Virus record (IMG/VR): IMGVR_UViG_3300029190_000103
Length of the DNA: 64,000 bases
From: a virus
Reading direction: 5' to 3' (one strand)
The translations under genes and the position numbers were made by a program. The notes under the pieces are model-generated. The model was not told where the DNA came from. It searched no databases and saw nothing but the letters and a program-made list of their open reading frames with translations. Positions 5,666-45,587 of this stretch are shown here, piece after piece; position 1 is the stretch's first letter; each line of letters opens with the position of its first letter.

Positions 5666-6658
5666 TTAATTCTCCTTCCTATACTTTTCCTGAACATATT
5701 TTGTTCTATTCAAGTAATCCTCTAATGTTTCAATGCTTTGTAAACAACCTTTTACTTCTGAGTCTTTCTTTATTCTACATACAACGCACTTACCATTCTT
5801 TAGCAAGTCAATATATTGTGTATACTTGTTTGCGAACACTGTAATATCAAATGTAACATTACCAACACCTAGATTGATGAACGCCATTTTTTTACCTTTG
5901 TTCTTGCCATTCTTAATTACGTTGGTCTTACAGTTGATGATGACTCCACCAACCCAACCTTCTTCTTCAACATTGACCTTATTCCAATCAGGAAGATAAA
6001 CACCTTCAAATGGATTACCAGATAGGTGTACATTCAGTACTTCCATTTCCCAATCTAACTCCGTTCCTTGACAGTATTTATCCTTGAATTTACTCCATTC
6101 TAGGCGCATTCTATGGTCATTGAATATATGTGTACAAAGTTCTTTATCGTCTTGCTGTTCAGGTGTAATAAGCCCCATATCGAACAGCTGTTTAATATTA
6201 GTCTTGTTAGCCTTTTTGATTGGTTTTTTATCTTCTTTGCCAGCATTAAATCTTGCAATAAAGTACTGTTGAAATAAGAACATCTTTCCTTTATTGGTTA
6301 ATGAATCTAACGCACCTGACTTAATCAGAGCAACAACGTCACCTTTATTCATTGTAATTGCTGTTGTCATGAAGTCTGTTATAGATACGAATGGTCTATT
6401 AGCAAGGATTGTTTTTAAACCATTCTCTGTTAGACCTTTAATGGAACCTAAACCAATCAGAATTTCATTATTTCTTTGATTAGGTGTATATGACAATCCA
6501 GAATTGTTGATATCAGGATTGTTTAATTCAAAACCTAATCGCTTTGCTTCTGATAACAATGTTGAGGCTTTATCTGTACCTTCATCCATAATCAGACAAG
6601 CGGTAAGATACTCAATAGGATAATGAACTTTCAGATATGCGGTAAGATATGACAACAA
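5666..6658 (-). CDS. dnaE: DNA polymerase III alpha subunit (DnaE-type), C-terminal segment
   Basis: Begins in the conserved AYLKVHYPIEYL motif. It is in the same frame as 6680-7786 and separated from it only by an in-frame TGA at 6680-6682. Confidence 0.7.
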   Translation of the reverse strand: MLSYLTAYLKVHYPIEYLTACLIMDEGTDKASTLLSEAKRLGFELNNPDINNSGLSYTPNQRNNEILIGLGSIKGLTENGLKTILANRPFVSITDFMTTAITMNKGDVVALIKSGALDSLTNKGKMFLFQQYFIARFNAGKEDKKPIKKANKTNIKQLFDMGLITPEQQDDKELCTHIFNDHRMRLEWSKFKDKYCQGTELDWEMEVLNVHLSGNPFEGVYLPDWNKVNVEEEGWVGGVIINCKTNVIKNGKNKGKKMAFINLGVGNVTFDITVFANKYTQYIDLLKNGKCVVCRIKKDSEVKGCLQSIETLEDYLNRTKYVQEKYRKEN

Positions 6659-6679: not shown

Positions 6680-7786
6680 TCAGGGTCGATTGAAGCAATA
6701 TTCAGACTGTTTTAATAACAAGTTCCAAATGGCTTCAATCTGTTCATCACCCCAATTCCTTTTTCTAAGACCTTCTTCAAACTTAGGTCGTAATGTTCTC
6801 ATTACATTTTCTTTTTTCTTACCAATTGCTCTACGACCAGTTTCTACTTCAACTTCTGGAAAGCCAGCATATCGCAATAATGATAATGCTTGTTCCTGAT
6901 ATAACAATACACAATGAGATTGTTTGAATAATCTCTTTAAATCTGGATGAATGACTGTTATATCGTATGGATGTAATTTATTGTGACAATAATCTGGGAA
7001 GCTGTCCTTAGTACCTGGTCGGTTAGCACTGTTTACAACAATAATATCTTCAATGTTGTCTGTCTTAGCTTCAATAAGCATTCTTCTAGCCTCTGCCGAC
7101 TCCATTTGAAATACGCCTACTGTTTCACCAGTCTTGTATACTTCATCATATACTTTTCTATCATTTAAATCTAAATGGTTTATATCAACATCTTCCCATG
7201 TAATTCCAGCAAACTTTAATGTCATATCTGCAATTGACAAATTCTTTAGCCCAAGTGAGTCCATCTTGATCAGTTTGATATCATCCATTAACGCATGCAT
7301 TTCAGCTTGGTGCATAATTTCGCCATCTTTGTTGTAACAAACAGGACAATATTCTGTTACAGGCTTTGGTGTAACCATGATTGCTGATGCATGACAACCT
7401 CTTGACTTAGGAAGTCCTGATAGCTTTAATGCGTATTCAAACCACATTGGATATTGCTTATACAATTTTTGTAGCTCATCATTACCTTTGATTGCATCCT
7501 TTAGCGATACATCTATCTCAATTTCATTTCCATCTTTATCAACTTTTTTGATAACAGGAATAGTTTTAGATACAAGGTCACGTAATTCAGGTGTAATCAT
7601 TCCTTTATATGGACTATCTTCTTTATCGTTTAGAACACGCCCTATATCTCTGATTGCAACCTTGTTTGAGAACGTATTGAATGTTGAAATATTACATACA
7701 TTTTCTTCTCCAAACAAATCTTTCATTACTTGGATCATATCTCCACGTTTTAATTTATCAACATCATAATCATACACTTTATCCAT
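6680..7786 (-). CDS. dnaE: DNA polymerase III alpha subunit, polymerase core segment (exon 2)
   Basis: DYDVD (PDIDID-like), GCHASAIMV (polymerase core) and ...EYCFNRP (GYAFNKSH-like) motifs. Confidence 0.7.
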   Translation of the reverse strand: MDKVYDYDVDKLKRGDMIQVMKDLFGEENVCNISTFNTFSNKVAIRDIGRVLNDKEDSPYKGMITPELRDLVSKTIPVIKKVDKDGNEIEIDVSLKDAIKGNDELQKLYKQYPMWFEYALKLSGLPKSRGCHASAIMVTPKPVTEYCPVCYNKDGEIMHQAEMHALMDDIKLIKMDSLGLKNLSIADMTLKFAGITWEDVDINHLDLNDRKVYDEVYKTGETVGVFQMESAEARRMLIEAKTDNIEDIIVVNSANRPGTKDSFPDYCHNKLHPYDITVIHPDLKRLFKQSHCVLLYQEQALSLLRYAGFPEVEVETGRRAIGKKKENVMRTLRPKFEEGLRKRNWGDEQIEAIWNLLLKQSEYCFNRP

Positions 7787-8590
7787 TATTTCTAATGGTG
7801 TAGACTATATCTTACCCTACAGCTTTACTGTTTAGGGTGGTGACACTTCCAGCAGTAACCAATCCTCTGCTGTACTCCCTTATGGGATAGTCGTTGCACC
7901 TTTGTTTAAAATAATTTTATATCCATTAGATGTAAAATATTTTCCTAGTGAAGAATAACTTAGCCCTATGGTTTTGCCATACCTACATGCATCACTAATA
8001 GAATTAAATTCTTTCACTAATTTTCCTTCTGGGTTTACCAATGAACACGGTCTAAAATTTCTTATATTGGAACAATATTTAAACGAATGCACCATATTAT
8101 ATTGATGAGTACACCATTCTAAATTTTCGTAATAGTTATTTGTACAATTATGGTCTATGTGATTAATCTCGTCTAACCCTTCAATACGTGGTACAAACGC
8201 TTCTGCGACCAATCTATGTATTAAATAATGTTTTGATTTTCCATCTTTGCATAAATTAACTGAATAATATCTATGCCTATTGTCAATTTTAGACAATGCC
8301 AAAATCTTTTCTGATTTCATTGAGTAAACTCTACCATGGTCTGATATATAATAATCATCAAGACCATTTATTACTTTCCATCTTTCTTTCATTATCCTCC
8401 TTTTTTATTTTAAACACTTGGCACAGGATTGCCTTCACCATAACGTGCTAAGGTTCCCCTGTTAGCTATATCATTGATATAACACCCCTTGGTAATAGGG
8501 TTCATCACCTTAATTATTCGTAATATTTCTACTACGCCAGACAATGACTTATCTGCCAGAGTTCCTTTTCTGCCTATATTTGCAAACCTA
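7787..8590 (-). mobile_element. group-I-like intron carrying an HNH homing endonuclease ORF, inserted in dnaE (boundaries approximate)
   Basis: DnaE homology stops after RFANIGRK (codons near 8565-8590) and resumes at YDYDVD (near 7786-7800); the interval holds a free-standing HNH ORF; the 5-prime intron part is translated in frame after RFANIGRK without DnaE similarity. Confidence 0.55.
7880..8392 (-). CDS. HNH homing endonuclease (intron-encoded)
   Basis: INHIDHNCTNNYYENLEWCT HNH motif, N-terminal NUMOD4-like region; sits between the dnaE segments. Confidence 0.7.
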   Translation of the reverse strand: MKERWKVINGLDDYYISDHGRVYSMKSEKILALSKIDNRHRYYSVNLCKDGKSKHYLIHRLVAEAFVPRIEGLDEINHIDHNCTNNYYENLEWCTHQYNMVHSFKYCSNIRNFRPCSLVNPEGKLVKEFNSISDACRYGKTIGLSYSSLGKYFTSNGYKIILNKGATTIP

Positions 8591-9765
8591 CTAAAGTCCA
8601 ATCCCCAGCGAACACTATCAATTTGCGTTACATTTAACATGAACAGACACAAACAGTTAGCTCCACTACCTCTTGAATACCCTAATGGTATCTTTCTTCT
8701 TCTGCATTCTTCTGAAATCATATTCAGCATGATAAGGTAATCAACAAAGTCAAGTTCCTCCAGTACAGGGATTTCCATTTCAATTCTTTCTCTACGAATT
8801 TGCTGTTCTTCCTCATTCATCCAACCAAACTTTTCATAGAATGTCTTATAACATAAATACCTTAAATATTCTGTACTATTCTTATATTCGCTAGGAACCT
8901 TGATATGTGGCATTTGCGGTTCATTATCTAACCCAACATCTACTTGTTCGCACATATCTACTATCTCTTGTGTAGCTTGCATACCTTGTTTTATAGCACC
9001 AATAGGTAACTGGTTACTCAATATATCCAATACATCTTTTTCATTCTGCATGAAGCAATCAGTGTATTGCTCTGATAATTCTCTATCCATGCTTACTTCA
9101 ACGAACATTGCATGAGAGTCTACATCATCTTTTGCTATCATATGCGCATCAGTTGTAATAACGTATGGGTAATCATATTCAACAGCAAAGTCATATATCA
9201 ATTTATTAGCTTCTAACTGACTTTGAGTACTATGAGATTGAATTTCACAATACACTTTGTCAAATGTATCGTCTAAATCATCCATATACTCCTCAGCTTC
9301 TTCTTCCATACCATTTACTAGGTATTTGCTCAAACGCCCAGCCTGACATGCTGTTAAACAGATTATTCCTCGCCCCCAATCGTTATTCCTAATACGGTTA
9401 ATATCAATTCTTGGTTTTATATATTGACCTTCTGTATTGGCATATGACACGATATCATACAGGTTATGTAAACCAATATTGTTTCTTGCAATTAATAATA
9501 AGTGATATCTTGTTTCTTTATATTCCTTTGTATTGTTCTTAAATGTATCGTCATCAACTTCGTAAATTTCACAAGCAGCTAAACATTTAATACCTTTTTC
9601 TCTTGCTAATCTTTGACTTAAAATAGTAGCTGACATATTTCCATGATCAGAAATGCATACAGCAGACTGACCGTTCTCTACAGCGTATTCTACTATTTGT
9701 TCGACTGTAGCAATAGAATCTAACAATGAATAGCAACTATGCACATGCAAGTTAGAAAATGCCAT
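8410..9765 (-). CDS. dnaE: DNA polymerase III alpha subunit, N-terminal PHP-domain segment (exon 1; true exon end near 8565)
   Basis: LHVHSCYSLLDS PHP motif, GRGSGA...RFANIGRK region. The last roughly 55 codons of the ORF are intron read-through. Confidence 0.7.
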   Translation of the reverse strand: MAFSNLHVHSCYSLLDSIATVEQIVEYAVENGQSAVCISDHGNMSATILSQRLAREKGIKCLAACEIYEVDDDTFKNNTKEYKETRYHLLLIARNNIGLHNLYDIVSYANTEGQYIKPRIDINRIRNNDWGRGIICLTACQAGRLSKYLVNGMEEEAEEYMDDLDDTFDKVYCEIQSHSTQSQLEANKLIYDFAVEYDYPYVITTDAHMIAKDDVDSHAMFVEVSMDRELSEQYTDCFMQNEKDVLDILSNQLPIGAIKQGMQATQEIVDMCEQVDVGLDNEPQMPHIKVPSEYKNSTEYLRYLCYKTFYEKFGWMNEEEQQIRRERIEMEIPVLEELDFVDYLIMLNMISEECRRRKIPLGYSRGSGANCLCLFMLNVTQIDSVRWGLDFSRFANIGRKGTLADKSLSGVVEILRIIKVMNPITKGCYINDIANRGTLARYGEGNPVPSV

Positions 9766-12582: not shown

Positions 12583-13455
12583 TTATTTCTTATCTGTTAC
12601 AACTGTTCCAGCACCATTAACAGTAACCCAACCATGTTTTAAACGTGCTTCTGCTTCTTTCATCTTGATCAATTCTGGTGTGATTGACTGTGATTTTAAT
12701 TTATTAGCTTCTGCTTCTCCTTTAGCCTTTTCAATTGCTACAGCAGCTTCACCTTCAGCTTTAACTTTATTAGTTTCAGCTTGTTTCTGTGCTGTTACAA
12801 GGTCTAATTCAGCCTTTTCAGCATCCTGTTTAGCTTGTTCTTTAGCTTTAACTTTCTTCATCAATTCATCATCTAACTGAACATCAATAATGTTAACTGA
12901 TGATACTTTGATACCATATTCATCTAACAGCTTTTCAGTTAAGTATTTAGAAATACTTTCTCCAACCAAGCTACGTTTCTCGCTATAGATATCCATAACA
13001 GAGAACTGTGGTGTAACATCTTTGATGTATGAAATAATCTGGTTCTGGACACGATTTTCAACGATATCTTCGCCATCCATTCCACCGAAATTCTCATATA
13101 GTTTTACGACCTTATCAGCCTCAAAGTTATAATTAATACTTACATTAAGTTTTACCATACCACCGTCTGCTGGTGCATCTACATGCCAGTCTTGGTGTTC
13201 ATCTTTATTGTAATCAGCTGGATTATTACTCAATACCAACTGCTGTTGTTTTACTGGGAACTGTTTTACTTTCAACAATGGATTAATGAAGTGATAACCT
13301 GTTGTTAACACATCTTCCTGAACTCCATCACTCATTGAATATACGACACCAACATTCCCTACATCTACTTTCTCGAATGAAGCAACTCCATATATTGCTC
13401 CTACTACTGCTCCAGCGATTACAACTCCAGCTAAAATACTACCTGTTTTATTCAT
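12583..13455 (-). CDS. SPFH/band-7 (HflK/C, prohibitin-like) membrane protein
   Basis: N-terminal TM helix, SPFH core, C-terminal Ala/Lys/Glu-rich coiled coil. Confidence 0.7.
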   Translation of the reverse strand: MNKTGSILAGVVIAGAVVGAIYGVASFEKVDVGNVGVVYSMSDGVQEDVLTTGYHFINPLLKVKQFPVKQQQLVLSNNPADYNKDEHQDWHVDAPADGGMVKLNVSINYNFEADKVVKLYENFGGMDGEDIVENRVQNQIISYIKDVTPQFSVMDIYSEKRSLVGESISKYLTEKLLDEYGIKVSSVNIIDVQLDDELMKKVKAKEQAKQDAEKAELDLVTAQKQAETNKVKAEGEAAVAIEKAKGEAEANKLKSQSITPELIKMKEAEARLKHGWVTVNGAGTVVTDKK

Positions 13456-21700: not shown

Positions 21701-22483
21701 CTAACCTCTTTCGCACAGAGGTAAATATCCGTGTTCTTTTAACAAGTTGTAAATGAACATTCTACCTTTCTGAGTCCACTTAGTAGTTGTGAATGCGTGT
21801 GATACACCACGTCTATCTTCTCTGTATGATGTATCTGATTCTGTATATCCTAAATCAGAATACTGAGAATATAATAACCATTGTTTGTTGACCTTATACT
21901 GAACACCTAAATCATGCAATAAATTGTTAAAGAACATAGCGGAATATCCATAATCTTTCGCAATCTGTGAGGCTGTTAAACAGTCCTTAGTTTGAAGAAT
22001 GATTTCACAGTATTCAGCTTTTGGTTGTAATTCTTCAATTTTTTCATCTTTTGCTTTATTCTCAATTTTTAACTGTTCATTCAGTTCAACTTCATCTGCC
22101 AGTTTTCTAAGTGCATCAGGTAATGTTCTTGGTAATTCAAACATTTCTTTTACTTTGAAATATGTATCTTCTAAATTATCAAATTGTTCCCATGCTTTAT
22201 CAGTGTCCAAAATTTTGCAATGACGATCAGCACCTTTTTCAGTCCAAAGATATAGGATAGATGCAAATTTAATTGAAGGGTCGTTACTATTAGTTACCAT
22301 CCTCTTAAATTCCTTTAAATCATCGCCTTTTAACACATAATAATGTTTCCCAGCAACAAAGCGTTCTTTATTTCTGTTGAAATTAGTTTTAATATTTGTT
22401 TCTGATGTTTCATAAACCTCAGCTAATTGCTGGGTTGTCAATACTCTTTGATTAGAGTATTCAATTACCTGTAATTCTTGCAC
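21701..22483 (-). CDS. phage antirepressor (ORF6N/KilA-N-like N-terminus plus ANT/KilAC-like C-terminus)
   Basis: N-terminal QVIEYSNQRVLTTQQLAEVYE; C-terminal ASQIAKDYGYSAMFFNNLLHDLG. Confidence 0.55.
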   Translation of the reverse strand: MQELQVIEYSNQRVLTTQQLAEVYETSETNIKTNFNRNKERFVAGKHYYVLKGDDLKEFKRMVTNSNDPSIKFASILYLWTEKGADRHCKILDTDKAWEQFDNLEDTYFKVKEMFELPRTLPDALRKLADEVELNEQLKIENKAKDEKIEELQPKAEYCEIILQTKDCLTASQIAKDYGYSAMFFNNLLHDLGVQYKVNKQWLLYSQYSDLGYTESDTSYREDRRGVSHAFTTTKWTQKGRMFIYNLLKEHGYLPLCERG

Positions 22484-25288: not shown

Positions 25289-26107
25289 TTAGTCACACCT
25301 TTGCTTTATATACTCATTTAAAGATATTAAATTATAATAACTCCCACCAATATTCCTATAAACATTGTTTGGCGTATCATATTTAAGTAACTCTGCCTTC
25401 TTTGAGTTTCTAATATCTTCAAGTGTGAACATCGTAAGGCATTTACTTTGAAGTTCTTTTTTCAGAGTTGTTATGATGCTCACTGGACTTAATTTTGTTG
25501 ACACTCTACTTTGGAAAAAGTATCCTTCACGTTCTCTTTTTTCTTTTCCTCGTATTTCTCTACGTTTATTCCAAGTTTTTATTTTATTACATAATTCAAT
25601 ATCATAATTTTTCATATATTTATATAGATCATAGGACATTGTCTTTCCCAAACACTTTTTGTTTAAAAAATCAATGTCATCAGTTTTTAAATTTAATACA
25701 TCATCTACTTTAAATAAATATTCATATACAAGCAGAATATAACATGCAATTGAAACATCAACTTCTGAAGCTATATCCAATATTTCATTCTTTGAAAGTA
25801 TTGTAAATTCATCTTTTCCTTGATCGAGTCGAACTTCTTTTAATGTGTATTTTAGAGTTCCAAGCCCTTTTTCCTCTAAATACATCTTGAATTTCTCTAA
25901 AGAGTATTGTTTCAAATATAGAGTTGCTGAACTATCTTCATTTTTACTTTCTTGTAAGAATATTTCGCAATCACTTTTACTAGGTACTATGAAATCTTCA
26001 CTTGTAATTAACTTTGATATGTTGAATTTATAATTTTTTGCTGTTCTCTCAGAGTTAGTTATGCACACATAATTATAAAAGTCATTCAAAACTTCTTTGG
26101 TTTTCAT
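25289..26107 (-). CDS. hypothetical protein (272 aa)
   Basis: ORF with RBS GGAGG. Confidence 0.45.
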   Translation of the reverse strand: MKTKEVLNDFYNYVCITNSERTAKNYKFNISKLITSEDFIVPSKSDCEIFLQESKNEDSSATLYLKQYSLEKFKMYLEEKGLGTLKYTLKEVRLDQGKDEFTILSKNEILDIASEVDVSIACYILLVYEYLFKVDDVLNLKTDDIDFLNKKCLGKTMSYDLYKYMKNYDIELCNKIKTWNKRREIRGKEKREREGYFFQSRVSTKLSPVSIITTLKKELQSKCLTMFTLEDIRNSKKAELLKYDTPNNVYRNIGGSYYNLISLNEYIKQRCD

Positions 26108-30075: not shown

Positions 30076-30358
30076 AAGCTCCTTCCACTGTTATAACAAT
30101 TCTGTTACATCCTGATAAATACTGAAATTCAATTTCATCAACTTCACTAGTTGCCAATGCTCTTATAATATCATTAAAATCAGGTAATGCTTTTATATTT
30201 CCAATATCATTCATTTCATCAGAGGAAACAATATAAAGTCCATGTGCCAACTCATATAAATTAAATTGTTCATGTCCTTCATAATTCCAGCCTACTCCAT
30301 TTTTACTAAAGTATTTAACATCATATCTCGTTGCCATTTTAATCCTCCTTGGCATCAA
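30065..30358 (-). CDS. hypothetical protein (97 aa)
   Basis: ORF. Confidence 0.4.
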   Translation of the reverse strand: MMPRRIKMATRYDVKYFSKNGVGWNYEGHEQFNLYELAHGLYIVSSDEMNDIGNIKALPDFNDIIRALATSEVDEIEFQYLSGCNRIVITVEGAYDE

Positions 30359-31406
30359 TTCCTGTAATCATTTTGAATTTATCTTCATCAAAATTAGGAA
30401 TATTTCTTATAATATCTTTTTCATGTTGTGTTAATGATTTCCACCATTCTTTTGTCGCATTAGATGTATCAAAAACTTTTAAATAACCGTGAGTCGTTTT
30501 ATAACTAGAATAACGTTCTTTTTCTTCATCAGTCATATCAAAATCATATACCCAATCAACTTTAAAATCTTTAATACGTAATAATATACGATAAGCTTCT
30601 GACCTACGCCATTGTTCAAATGTAATATCAGTATCTTTGTCAAAGAATTTTAACTTTTGATTAATTGTATTAAAACAACCAGAACAGAAAGAAGCTATAT
30701 TCCAATCTCCACTATTTTCATACCCTATATTGTGGTGTCCACTATTGTAATTTCCAGTGTTGTAATCTCCAGTGTTTCGACATCCTTTGTTGTAATTTCC
30801 AGTGTTGTAATCTCCAGTGTTGTGACCACCACTATTGTAGTGCCCGATATTACAATTCCAAGTGTTACGGTAACCTCTATTGCGAATTCCTGTATTCCAA
30901 AAACCTCTATTTTGATTTCCTGTATTATAATCACCACTATTGTAGTCACCAACATTTTTATTACCGCTATTGTAATTACCAGTGTTATTGTCGCCGCTAT
31001 TTTCATCACCAACGTTTCTATCGCCACTATTCCAATTTCCAATATTTTCATTTCCACTATTACGCCTACCAATATTTTTAAAACCTGTATTTAAATGCCC
31101 CATATTAACAAGTTCAAGAACTTCATGCCACGATAATTCACGATCAATTCTGATTTTATTTGTTGCACATTTTGAATCTTCTCCATCGCAATCAACATCA
31201 CCAAGTGCGGTTACTTCTGCTACTTTATTTTCAGGATCAAAAGGATAATAATTAAAACAATCTAGCACATTCTTACAAAAATGAAATCCATCGCTGCAAC
31301 ATTGTGGATTTACTTTTTCTTTAAATGTTCTTCCCACTTCGTACTGAAACCCTCTACACGTCCAATCATGGTTAAAAACTTTATAACCTTTAACTTTCTT
31401 TCTCAT
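30339..31406 (-). CDS. Asn/Gly-rich five-residue-repeat (N-x-G-D/N-x) beta-solenoid-like protein with Cys/His-containing N-terminal domain
   Basis: About 24 consecutive units such as NSGDR NVGDE NSGDN NTGNY NSGNK NVGDY between a C/H-rich N-terminal domain (WTCRGF...QCCSDGFHFC) and a 100 aa C-terminal domain. Confidence 0.55.
   Translation of the reverse strand: MRKKVKGYKVFNHDWTCRGFQYEVGRTFKEKVNPQCCSDGFHFCKNVLDCFNYYPFDPENKVAEVTALGDVDCDGEDSKCATNKIRIDRELSWHEVLELVNMGHLNTGFKNIGRRNSGNENIGNWNSGDRNVGDENSGDNNTGNYNSGNKNVGDYNSGDYNTGNQNRGFWNTGIRNRGYRNTWNCNIGHYNSGGHNTGDYNTGNYNKGCRNTGDYNTGNYNSGHHNIGYENSGDWNIASFCSGCFNTINQKLKFFDKDTDITFEQWRRSEAYRILLRIKDFKVDWVYDFDMTDEEKERYSSYKTTHGYLKVFDTSNATKEWWKSLTQHEKDIIRNIPNFDEDKFKMITGIDAKED
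30745..30821. repeat. exact 32 nt direct duplication inside the repeat-protein gene
   Basis: TTGTAATTTCCAGTGTTGTAATCTCCAGTGTT at 30745-30776 and 30790-30821, 13 nt apart. Confidence 0.8.
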
Positions 31407-31416
31407 ACCAATCCTC

Positions 31417-32142
31417 CTAAATACTCTCTAAATTATCTTTCATATCTTCCTCAAATTGCTCTGATTCTACATATGTTTGATATTCACTTATCCTATCCAT
31501 AACTCTTTTTAATTCATAGTCTTCAAGTTTTCTTTTTACAATTTCTAATTTTTCTTCATCCTTAATAGATTGTAAAAATACGATGTATAGGTCTGTTAAT
31601 AAGTGATATACATGTTGTTCTTTAAAATTGTACATTAGAATATCAAATTGAGAATTATTGTTGGTATACGAATAAACATACGCATCTCTAATTTCCTCAT
31701 TTGTGACACCTTCGCTGTCTAAGAATTCGTTAGCAATACATTCTAACTTCTCATTTTCAATACGCTCCTGTTCCAATAAATTGCCATAACCATCAGCATA
31801 ACATATTAAATGAATTTTTTCATAGTATCCAATTAATCTAAAGATAGTTCCATTTATTCTTTTAATAAGCATATTCACGCTATCACGTTTTATTGGATAA
31901 GCAACTATGTCACTTATTTCTTTGCTACTATACTTGTTTTTAAGTTTGATACAAAATACAATTACACTGTCAATTGTTTTAATTGATTCCATGTTCAATG
32001 TTATTACATAATCGCCATAATCAAATAAAGTCCATATCTTATCCCATAATTTTGGGTTTAAGTAGTTCTTGATGATAAAGCTATAATCCATTTCATATAC
32101 TTTTATTATAGGTACCATTTTATTCCTCCTACGCTTTTGCAA
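31417..32142 (-). CDS. hypothetical protein (241 aa)
   Basis: ORF. Confidence 0.4.
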   Translation of the reverse strand: MQKRRRNKMVPIIKVYEMDYSFIIKNYLNPKLWDKIWTLFDYGDYVITLNMESIKTIDSVIVFCIKLKNKYSSKEISDIVAYPIKRDSVNMLIKRINGTIFRLIGYYEKIHLICYADGYGNLLEQERIENEKLECIANEFLDSEGVTNEEIRDAYVYSYTNNNSQFDILMYNFKEQHVYHLLTDLYIVFLQSIKDEEKLEIVKRKLEDYELKRVMDRISEYQTYVESEQFEEDMKDNLESI

Positions 32143-32911
32143 TTAAAGTCTGAATGTACTCCAAACCTTTTGGTGTTACCATTGTTTCCTTGAATTTCTC
32201 AATCGTTCCGTTATTGTCATATGTACGTTCTGTAACTGTAAGGAAACCATCAGTCTTAGCCTTCTTTAACGGTAATCTCCACCCTGACTTTGTAGACCTT
32301 GTCAATTTACCACGTTCCATGATATCCCACATCTTCTCCAAGTTAGCAATCTTGTATCCATTGCTCACAAGGTAGTTATAGGCTTCCTCGACGGTCAAAG
32401 CATCATCGTCTACAGGTATTTCAGCCAACTGTTCTTCTTGCTTATCAAGACGTTCTACGAGCTTATTGACGATAGCTGTAAGATTATTTACAGTGTCTTG
32501 CATGACTTTGAAACTATCAGCCAATGACATAACGATCGTTGCAAGCTGTTGAGTATTTAATGCTGTTTCTTTTGCCTTTTCCTCAATCGTGACAAAGTAA
32601 TCACGTGCTTGTTCGCCTTTCTCATTATTGGTAGCCATTGATAGTTTCTTGGCAAATTGGGCGGTTAGTTTAGCATCACGTGTTGGTCTACCTCCAAGAG
32701 GGTTTTCTTCTTCAATGAGGAAAACTATATAATCTTCATTTTCTGTTGCAAATTTATTATCTACAATATTTTTATTAAACCATCTGGAATAATTTTTCAT
32801 ATTTAATTCCAAAAACTCATACAGCTTTCTTGCTGTTGTCATTCCATTTTCGTCTACACCTAATGCAATCTCAATCGGTGTTTTGTCTGTTGTTTCAATA
32901 ATGTTATCCAT
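32129..32911 (-). CDS. AntA/AntB-type phage antirepressor-like protein
   Basis: N-terminal TARKLYEFLELNMKNYSRWFNKNIVDNKFATENEDY resembles the AntA domain. Confidence 0.5.
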   Translation of the reverse strand: MDNIIETTDKTPIEIALGVDENGMTTARKLYEFLELNMKNYSRWFNKNIVDNKFATENEDYIVFLIEEENPLGGRPTRDAKLTAQFAKKLSMATNNEKGEQARDYFVTIEEKAKETALNTQQLATIVMSLADSFKVMQDTVNNLTAIVNKLVERLDKQEEQLAEIPVDDDALTVEEAYNYLVSNGYKIANLEKMWDIMERGKLTRSTKSGWRLPLKKAKTDGFLTVTERTYDNNGTIEKFKETMVTPKGLEYIQTLIAKA

Positions 32912-44612: not shown

Positions 44613-45587
44613 TTACTTTACAAACATATTATACATAATTTTGTCCATATTACATTTTGCTATTTTTGAAGCATGAACGTATCTCATTGTGGTAGATCTA
44701 CTGGCATGCCCCATCAACTTTTGCAGTGTATCTTCATCAGCACCATTCTCAATCATTGCTGTAGCAAACGTGTGTCGCAATGTATGAGGATGAATCGTTT
44801 CGTAATCAAGTCCAGCTTTGATGGCCGCATTCTTGACGATTGTATTGATTGTACCCACAGATATTTTTTTACCCTTACTGTCTGGTTGTGTCGTGTGTGA
44901 TACAAACATATACTCGTTTTTATCTTTCCACGTTAGATTTCTTTTTTCAAGATATTCCGTAAGTTGTACGTACAAGTCTTTGTGAATTATTTCAATACGA
45001 ACCTTGTCTCCTTTTCCCTTTGGTTGGATTACATATGACTCATCACTCTTGAAAATATCCCCAACTTTTAAATCTGTTATCTCAGCACGTCGCATTCCTG
45101 TAGTTAGCATTAGAGTGACAATGATCGTGTTACGGAAACCAGCGATACCTTTTGACATTCCAGCACCTTGTATCAGCCTTCTGCCTTCCTCGATGGATAA
45201 TGCCCTATCCTGACTAAATTCTGATATTGCATTCTTGTATCTGTAACATCCTTCGTCTGTTGATATTGGATTATAGTCCATGACACCAACTGATTTACGT
45301 GACAAGAACTTGTAAAAACTGTTTAGGGCAGCAAGCTTTGCATTTACTGTAGCACGCTTCATTCCCTTTTTAATTTGTTCTGAACTCCAATCGTTGACAA
45401 TTTCAGGTGTTACGCTTCTGATATCTTCCAGCGTAATGTCTTTACTGCTTTTCTTGTTGAAGAACTGCAAGATTGAGCGTGCATAACTATCTTTGGTTTT
45501 ATCTGAAAGATTGTTTGTGTACATGTCTGCATAATTAATTTCGTTAGCTTTTCCTACTTGTGTATCGTTTAACATTATCTGTTTCAT
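44613..45587 (-). CDS. int: tyrosine recombinase / phage integrase (XerC/D family)
   Basis: C-terminal HTLRHTFATAMIENGADEDTLQKLMGHASRSTTMRYVH (R..H..Y catalytic box); N-terminal SAM-like core-binding domain. Confidence 0.8.
   Translation of the reverse strand: MKQIMLNDTQVGKANEINYADMYTNNLSDKTKDSYARSILQFFNKKSSKDITLEDIRSVTPEIVNDWSSEQIKKGMKRATVNAKLAALNSFYKFLSRKSVGVMDYNPISTDEGCYRYKNAISEFSQDRALSIEEGRRLIQGAGMSKGIAGFRNTIIVTLMLTTGMRRAEITDLKVGDIFKSDESYVIQPKGKGDKVRIEIIHKDLYVQLTEYLEKRNLTWKDKNEYMFVSHTTQPDSKGKKISVGTINTIVKNAAIKAGLDYETIHPHTLRHTFATAMIENGADEDTLQKLMGHASRSTTMRYVHASKIAKCNMDKIMYNMFVK

Follow-up and report, generated by a model that had tools for sequence, protein, structure and literature searches.

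The window analysed here is a 64,000-nucleotide (nt) stretch of viral DNA, IMG/VR record IMGVR_UViG_3300029190_000103, which carries on its minus strand a gene for a repeat protein of 355 amino acids (aa) whose N-terminal domain, DUF7666, is predicted to adopt an ADP-ribosyltransferase (ART) fold. The open reading frame (ORF) occupies positions 30339..31406, from an ATG start to a TAA stop (30339-30341), and was delimited as a complete coding sequence, with DUF7666, Pentapeptide_2 repeats and a conserved C-terminal domain, on the basis of the ORF list, Pfam, PHROG and NCBI nr. An earlier inspection made without database searches, here called the sequence-only reading, had described a 355-aa ORF composed of a Cys/His-bearing N-terminal domain, a run of pentamers and a C-terminal domain. 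The ORF is real, although its coding strand is the minus strand. The division into three parts was described correctly, and the N-terminal ~105 aa do hold 7 Cys and 4 His. The N-terminal domain (aa 1-104, with DUF7666 at aa 5-98) is encoded by 31095..31406, the repeat region of 26 in-register pentapeptides (aa 106-235), presumed to form a narrow beta-solenoid stalk, by 30702..31091, and degenerate capping units together with a conserved alpha/beta C-terminal domain (aa 236-355) by 30342..30701, all on the minus strand; the C-terminal ~105-120 aa constitute a separate conserved domain. As read from the DNA, a Shine-Dalgarno-like AGGAGGA is found a few bases 5′ of the ATG (31412..31418, minus strand). 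The preceding gene stops 10 nt before the ATG and the ATG of the next gene (30337) lies 1 nt past the stop codon, a spacing that was also present in the gene calls on an identical metagenome contig. The gene therefore belongs to a tightly packed, co-directional operon. A promoter and terminator scan showed no excess over shuffled sequence and no convincing site adjoining the gene. Three extra ORFs inside the repeat (30657-31094 on the plus strand, 30725-31072 on the minus strand and 30982-31248 on the plus strand) are by-products of the periodic sequence.

The N-terminal domain is a member of Pfam DUF7666 (PF24703), as aa 5-98 matched model positions 1-94/95 with an E value of 5.5e-36 and 123.4 bits against a cut-off of 27. 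Its structure model had a mean predicted local distance difference test (pLDDT) score of 92.8, and aa 1-104 superposed on structures of the ART superfamily over 69-85 residues at 2.4-3.1 Å, which places this predicted structure within the split beta-sheet ART core fold. The closest ART-fold structure was BC2332 (PDB 2aua), followed by PARP catalytic domains, Arr, Tpt1/KptA, TreTu and MbcT, and a fold search with the full-length model returned the same ART-fold matches. BC2332 is classified in the ADP-ribosylation superfamily of SCOP (d.166.1.6; PMC3000352), and a match between its structure and the active site of diphtheria toxin has been described (PMC3024214). Independently, a study using BLASTP and HHpred (PMC7354433) gave the DUF7666 homologue of Acinetobacter phage fEg-Aba01 (PF24703, E 3.6e-37) the annotation 'putative ADP-ribosyltransferase', which the record note bases on resemblance to the structure of the rifampin ART. 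Comparison with eight relatives of 30-51% identity showed that K9, F11, C17, G25, G40, H42, C44, F51, Y53, Y54 and G69 are invariant, and that E90 and R18 are conserved in 7/8. The invariant K9, H42, Y53 and Y54 and the nearly invariant E90 would be compatible with a conserved active or ligand site. We also take the motif G-F-H-F-C-x8-Y-Y to be like the G-[IF]-Y-[FS]-[AT]...Y of PARP1 and diphtheria toxin, a presumed resemblance that serves as a lead and not as a test. The sequence-only reading had missed that the Cys/His-bearing domain is DUF7666 with a predicted ART fold, which is the most informative functional clue.

The repeat region consists of 26 pentamers in one register, slightly more than the "about 24" counted previously. 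All except one (NTWNC) are exactly N-x-G-x-x (25/26), with Asn at position 1 and Gly at position 3 in 25/25 units, and the pentamers are followed by three degenerate capping units (NIASF CSGCF NTINQ). Tandem Repeats Finder reported periods of 15/30/45 nt, and the consensus across 121 family members was N-[ST]-G-[DN]-[RWCY]. The region matched Pfam Pentapeptide_2 (PF01469) in 6 stretches, with an E value of 6.6e-36 and 122.4 bits; because this score is far over the cut-off of 26.4, chance can be excluded as the source of the repeat. Searches with PF00805, PF13599 and PF13576 gave no match to the protein at E<=1 in the Pfam scan, and the same tool recovered a true PF00805 protein, encoded at a related locus, at E 3.5e-33. 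The empty PF00805 search and the central Gly bear out the previous statement that the repeat falls outside the classical A(D/N)LXX family. The proposal of a novel repeat type did not hold, since the repeat is Pentapeptide_2, for which a minimal beta-solenoid with two pentapeptides (10 residues) per coil had already been predicted (PMC9663297); in a later study four predictors agree on the PF01469 fold (bioRxiv 10.1101/2024.10.30.621056). By this modelling, the repeat most likely folds as a very narrow beta-solenoid rod with Asn, Ser and Thr inside and positions 4-5 outside. The PF01469 model was built from the N-x-G repeats of mycobacterial PPE-MPTR proteins, and we know of no experimental structure of the predicted 10-residue-coil beta-solenoid. 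The mycobacterial PPE family is marked by an N-terminal PPE domain (PF00823) of ~180 aa ahead of the repeats. This domain was not found in our protein, for which Pfam at E<=1 gave DUF7666 and Pentapeptide_2 only, so that the protein falls outside the PPE family and the NCBI names 'PPE family protein' and 'PPE-repeat protein' reflect the repeat alone.

The DNA beneath the repeat holds a direct repeat of 32 nt, with copy A at 30745..30776 and copy B at 30790..30821, 45 nt away. The two copies are exactly identical, as the sequence-only reading had stated, and its suggestion that repeat number may vary by recombination was borne out by naturally occurring alleles. An allele from [Eubacterium] hominis (P0124, 340 aa, ~100% identical) differs from our protein by one substitution, H306Y, and by the clean loss of aa 196-210; this loss corresponds to nt 30777-30821, which is precisely the single 45-nt unit that the two 32-nt copies delimit. 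A second allele (P0126, 345 aa, 96% identity) is devoid of aa 161-170. Length variation by whole units was also found at greater distance: gene lengths in Rheinheimera phages that infect one strain change in 15-nt steps (966/951/936 nt), and in 118 of 121 relatives the number of residues in the repeat block is divisible by five, with 5 to 39 units per protein. The homologues in the three Acinetobacter phages of Badawy et al. measure 195, 345 and 291 aa (PMC7354433). These results document allele-level repeat polymorphism by whole pentapeptides and indicate that the length of the rod changes readily via recombination or slippage between DNA repeats.

An identical protein is present in NCBI nr under the name 'MAG TPA: PPE-repeat protein [Caudoviricetes sp.]' (DAZ41308.1), and Erysipelotrichaceae/Absiella and [Eubacterium] hominis contribute WP_ entries to the 90% cluster of the protein. 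Metagenome contigs from the human gut, of 81 kb and 0.2-1 Mb, also encode it. When 5.8 billion sequence clusters were searched, at least 7,971 gave a significant match; in all 120 matches listed, of 256-442 aa, DUF7666 and Pentapeptide_2 were found together. The protein matched PHROG 14105 (E 1e-126), whose function is given as unknown. Isolated phages with a relative amounted to 183-186 records, including 115 Rheinheimera 'Barba' phages in which the gene is annotated 'pentapeptide', and gp123 of Clostridioides phage AR1086-1 showed 46% identity over the full length. A megablast of the region 29-33 kb against isolated phages gave no match, and PDB sequence searches with the full protein and with a profile of the C-terminal domain found nothing meaningful.

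The C-terminal domain is devoid of a Pfam model, and its profile recovered 1,542 representative clusters among 1.84 billion. It follows Pentapeptide_2 repeats in 9/10 architectures examined, either together with DUF7666 (3), in its absence (6), or in duplicated form, and gp20 of Roseobacter phage CRP-811 consists of repeat and C-terminal domain with no head. Conversely, gp53 of Salmonella phage ES18 (L084:4001-4849) and gp13 of Pseudomonas phage phi2 (L085:2965-3990) join DUF7666 to a 9-residue repeat and to a C-terminal domain that they share with a split Vibrio phage gene and that is unrelated to ours; the 9-residue repeat of the ES18, phi2 and Vibrio DUF7666 proteins reads S-A-A-[ST]-N-T-G-[NDY]-[WQRY]. 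Lactobacillus phage SAC12B has DUF7666 joined to DUF4116, and six metagenomic relatives (P0034, P0037, P0050, P0054, P0067 and P0120) carry two tandem copies of DUF7666, with the first repeat at about aa 200. Because each part occurs without the other, we consider the protein a fusion of two mobile modules, the ART-fold head and a solenoid-plus-cap. Several unusual forms of the family were also observed. In Vibrio phage 1.021.A (L086:3001-3571) the annotation splits head and C-terminal domain into two genes that overlap, and hardly any repeats remain; in fEg-Aba01 gp28c (L083:3959-4546) a (T-Q-Q-A-L-L-L-A-T)n repeat runs from DUF7666 to the end of the protein, a 195-aa form that may be a frameshifted reading of the ES18/phi2 9-residue repeat. 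Paralogues about 12-13 kb apart were present in IMG/VR loci of metagenome 3300045988 (L028/L069, L055/L071, L040/L075, L042/L076, L035/L078 and L077/L079), and ORF clustering revealed three DUF7666-pentapeptide copies within 17 kb, often adjacent, at 13 loci. A separate observation concerns DUF5758, which ends in C..G-I-H-F-F, like the C..G-F-H-F-C of DUF7666, and could be a distant relation of it. When the two were compared with hhalign, they aligned weakly and locally over 31 columns (E 0.006, probability 6%), and the Pfam cross-match had an E value of 0.15. PF00805 proteins with a C-terminal DUF5758 (E 3.5e-33 for PF00805) lie 1-4 genes upstream of the DUF7666 gene, for example at L040:2158-2889 and in ~22 other loci. 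A literature search found no paper mentioning DUF7666 or DUF5758.

The gene content of the window is that of a phage or prophage, with a long minus-strand array that starts at an integrase (44613-45587). An AntA/KilAC antirepressor (32129-32911, minus strand) lies two genes upstream of the studied gene; downstream of the studied gene the array encodes Sak4, a second antirepressor and DnaB, followed by a Toprim primase, an exonuclease, a split polymerase and PAPS reductase. From ~49 kb onwards, the plus strand carries the terminase, portal and capsid genes. This structural module is ~15-20 kb away from the studied gene, which lies on the other strand. In the PL operon of ES18 the homologue gp53 comes immediately after N and ahead of cIII/kil, that of fEg-Aba01 lies between cI and xis/int, and those of AR1086-1, Barba and CRP-811 are found among small early genes. 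Together, these positions support the description of the gene as early or accessory, and the "early region" of the sequence-only reading stands as a non-structural early/accessory module by gene position. None of 12 window neighbours recurred beside homologues in 82 related loci. A clustering of neighbours was used qualitatively, as it is dominated by related phages of one metagenome and its largest cluster is contaminated by single linkage. PADLOC-DB gave no match for the protein or four neighbours at E<=0.01, and NCBIfam gave no match. Other features of the window include two antirepressor-type genes in one minus-strand operon, AntA + KilAC and ORF6N + KilAC (32129-32911 and 21701-22483), and a PHROG-405-type DNA polymerase split between minus-strand ORFs 8410-9765 and 6680-7786, with a free-standing HNH_3/NUMOD4 homing-endonuclease ORF (7880-8392) inserted between the polymerase pieces and a third ORF (5666-6658, minus strand) bearing HHH_6 and OB-fold domains. 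An SPFH/Band 7 protein within the replication module and, in addition to the clear integrase, another ORF that is weakly integrase-like (PF00589 at E 1.5e-4, which does not reach the cut-off) were found at 12583-13455 and 25289-26107 on the minus strand. On another gut contig that encodes the identical protein, the upstream gene (L090:3823-4383) has 186 aa and ends ~155 nt away, where the window has a gene of 233-241 aa (31417-32142); this difference indicates that the junction upstream of the studied gene is variable among otherwise near-identical phages.

All in all, we favour, with a probability of roughly 45%, the interpretation that the protein is an early accessory effector whose ART-fold head binds NAD+ (nicotinamide adenine dinucleotide) and ADP-ribosylates a target of the host or of a competitor. 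The gene would be a three-module accessory gene of a temperate phage or prophage of human-gut Erysipelotrichaceae (Absiella / [Eubacterium] hominis), and the protein would be made from an early/accessory operon. Its head would bind NAD+ and move ADP-ribose onto a host or competitor macromolecule or, alternatively, consume or bind an NAD-derived ligand. The solenoid would serve as a length-variable rigid spacer and the C-terminal domain as a targeting, binding or capping unit. Such a mode of action would be like that of Alt, ModA and ModB of phage T4 or of the anti-CRISPR ART AcrIF11. Catalysis, target and solenoid geometry are the parts of this proposal that we infer.

Several results weigh against it. 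The Rheinheimera phage homologue has Phe in place of E90, and R18 is not invariant either. The DUF7666 domain gave no Pfam match to known ART families at E<=10, a PDB profile search with the N-terminal domain returned nothing, and hhalign of its profile against the verified Arr-2 sequence gave no signal; sequence-profile homology to a known ART family was thus not detected with these profiles, which are shallow (effective number of sequences, Neff, ~2). The invariant C17, C44 and H42 and the frequent C37 could form a structural zinc site, in which case H42 would be a metal ligand and not an NAD+ contact. To our knowledge, a domain of ~95 aa is also smaller than any characterised active ART. 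As for the stalk, the full-length AlphaFold2 (AF2) model showed periodic strands in the repeat region, but pLDDT was <50 there and no confident solenoid was obtained, and AF2 over-predicts solenoids for repeats. Finally, no conserved macrodomain, ARH or immunity-gene partner was found nearby among the related loci. Because a sequence-level link to ARTs is missing and a zinc site is possible, we assign the ART fold to the DUF7666 head with good confidence, on the evidence of the predicted structure, and only infer catalysis.

These same features bring forward the strongest alternative, which we regard as possible though clearly less probable than the effector reading: a pseudo-enzyme, that is, a zinc-stabilised, catalytically dead ART-like scaffold that acts by binding as an inhibitor, adaptor or ligand sponge. 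PARP13, TASOR and RCD1 are catalytically dead ART-like scaffolds of this kind, and the interface would here be provided by positions 4-5 of the solenoid (D/N + R/W/C/Y) and by the C-terminal domain. A Cys/His-rich invariant set (C17, H42, C44, often C37), a candidate catalytic Glu that is not universal and the lack of detected sequence similarity to active ART families are what such a scaffold would show, and a gene without a conserved antidote or immunity neighbour is expected of a non-toxic protein. In contrast, no other part of the family is as conserved as the N-terminal domain, and K9, H42, Y53 and Y54 are invariant down to 30% identity, a pattern typical of a ligand or active site. Also against a dead scaffold, a homologue was annotated as an ADP-ribosyltransferase, similar to the active enzyme Arr, in the HHpred-using study (PMC7354433).

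We consider it unlikely that the protein is a toxin or defence module of the prophage, with an ART-fold toxin head (as in DarT, ParT/RES and Tre) and the variable solenoid as a sensor or regulator, that would act in lysogen stabilisation, abortive infection or superinfection exclusion. Badawy et al. did propose that the Acinetobacter homologue and its upstream gene form a toxin-antitoxin pair (PMC7354433). The gene is found in temperate phages near lysogeny modules, several phages have 2-4 paralogues, and fast repeat variation would suit an arms race. However, neither the protein nor its four neighbours had a match in PADLOC, no window neighbour stood next to homologues in the 82 loci compared, and the ES18 homologue belongs to an early lytic operon, PL. 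Large phages of lytic type carry family members as well (a 130-kb Clostridioides phage, Herelleviridae SAC12B and 80-kb Rheinheimera myoviruses).

The sequence-only reading had favoured a DNA mimic analogous to Qnr, namely a pentapeptide solenoid like Qnr/MfpA that binds gyrase, a restriction enzyme or some other enzyme acting on DNA. The five-residue period with a probable beta-helix and the early genomic position agree with this idea, and PF00805 proteins, encoded a few genes away in ~22 related phage loci, are within the repertoire of these phages. MfpA and Qnr form a 20-residue quadrilateral helix with the dimensions of B-DNA. Our protein has no PF00805 or Pentapeptide_4 match and carries a central Gly, not Leu or Phe, and the predicted PF01469 coil of 10 residues (PMC9663297) is only half as large in circumference as that quadrilateral helix. 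The analogy further fails on charge and on length. The repeat region contains 11 K/R and 11 D/E, with a net charge of 0 (-5 for the whole protein), and in 121 family members the net charge of this region ranged from -21 to +7, with a mean of -2.4, so that the strong and consistent negative charge of DNA mimics of the MfpA/Qnr, Ocr and ArdA type was not found. Arg, Trp and Tyr are exposed as often as Asp, and a rod of 5 to 39 units is ill suited to copying a defined DNA segment. Because of this charge range, the range in unit number and the half-circumference predicted coil, a conserved DNA-like surface is not supported, and we regard DNA mimicry as very improbable. The observation from which the sequence-only reading started is thus confirmed, and its interpretation is supported in part only. 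Least probable of all, and hardly worth retaining, is a structural repeat protein of the virion, fibre or spike, since the gene lies ~15-20 kb from the structural module on the opposite strand, the homologues of ES18, fEg-Aba01, AR1086-1, Barba and CRP-811 sit among early, regulatory or nucleotide-metabolism genes, the PHROG function is listed as unknown and not structural, and the beta-helix matches stem from the low-confidence part of the model.

The sequence itself is already catalogued, in Pfam as DUF7666 and Pentapeptide_2, in PHROG 14105 and in NCBI as DAZ41308.1; what is new here is the predicted ART fold of DUF7666 and the allele-level repeat polymorphism. The former turns a domain present in thousands of phages, including Salmonella phage ES18, into a testable enzymatic hypothesis. 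ADP-ribosylation recurs as a weapon in conflicts between phages and hosts, as in T4 Alt/Mod, AcrIF11 and DarT. The repeat stalk offers a natural, length-polymorphic case of the predicted 10-residue-coil beta-solenoid. DUF7666 is spread over more than 8,000 sequence clusters, from Firmicutes to Proteobacteria and cyanophages, and a wider and more doubtful proposal is that it might represent a family, very large and so far unrecognised, whose members are miniature ADP-ribosyltransferases or NAD-ligand binders of phages, mounted on a minimal beta-solenoid of hypervariable length, that would modify or neutralise a target in host takeover or immunity. If this were true, these proteins would form a class of early phage effectors that is new, and would offer in nature a tractable case of the shortest beta-solenoid possible. 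If the head is inactive, the protein would be an ordinary member of a large uncharacterised family of phage accessory proteins.

Compared with known systems, the protein resembles the ART superfamily in the predicted fold of aa 1-104 and differs from it in that the domain is of ~95 aa, Cys-rich, without an established H-Y-E/R-S-E triad and fused to a repeat stalk; with Alt, ModA and ModB of phage T4 and with AcrIF11 it shares being phage-encoded and non-structural. The repeat has the N-x-G core, the five-residue period and the predicted two-pentapeptide coil of the PF01469 repeats of PPE-MPTR proteins. In contrast to these, it belongs to a phage protein of cytoplasmic type, in Firmicutes, that has neither a PPE N-terminal domain nor an ESX-type secretion context; its positions 4-5 are [DN]-[RWCY], whereas those of PPE-MPTR are mostly Gly or small residues, and it is flanked by DUF7666 and a specific C-terminal domain. 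With the PF00805 proteins Qnr, MfpA and AlbG, which are often small accessory proteins too, it has in common the five-residue period and, by prediction, a beta-helical repeat, but it differs in the central Gly in place of Leu or Phe, in a predicted coil of 10 and not 20 residues, and in having no conserved acidic surface. The DUF7666 proteins of isolated phages are alike in the N-terminal domain (30-51% identity), in their length-unstable tandem repeats and in their early or accessory position. The Barba proteins align at ~33% identity over 98% of the query, but were not recovered with the C-terminal domain alone, and it is only in AR1086-1 and in the metagenomic relatives that all three modules are found at close identity.

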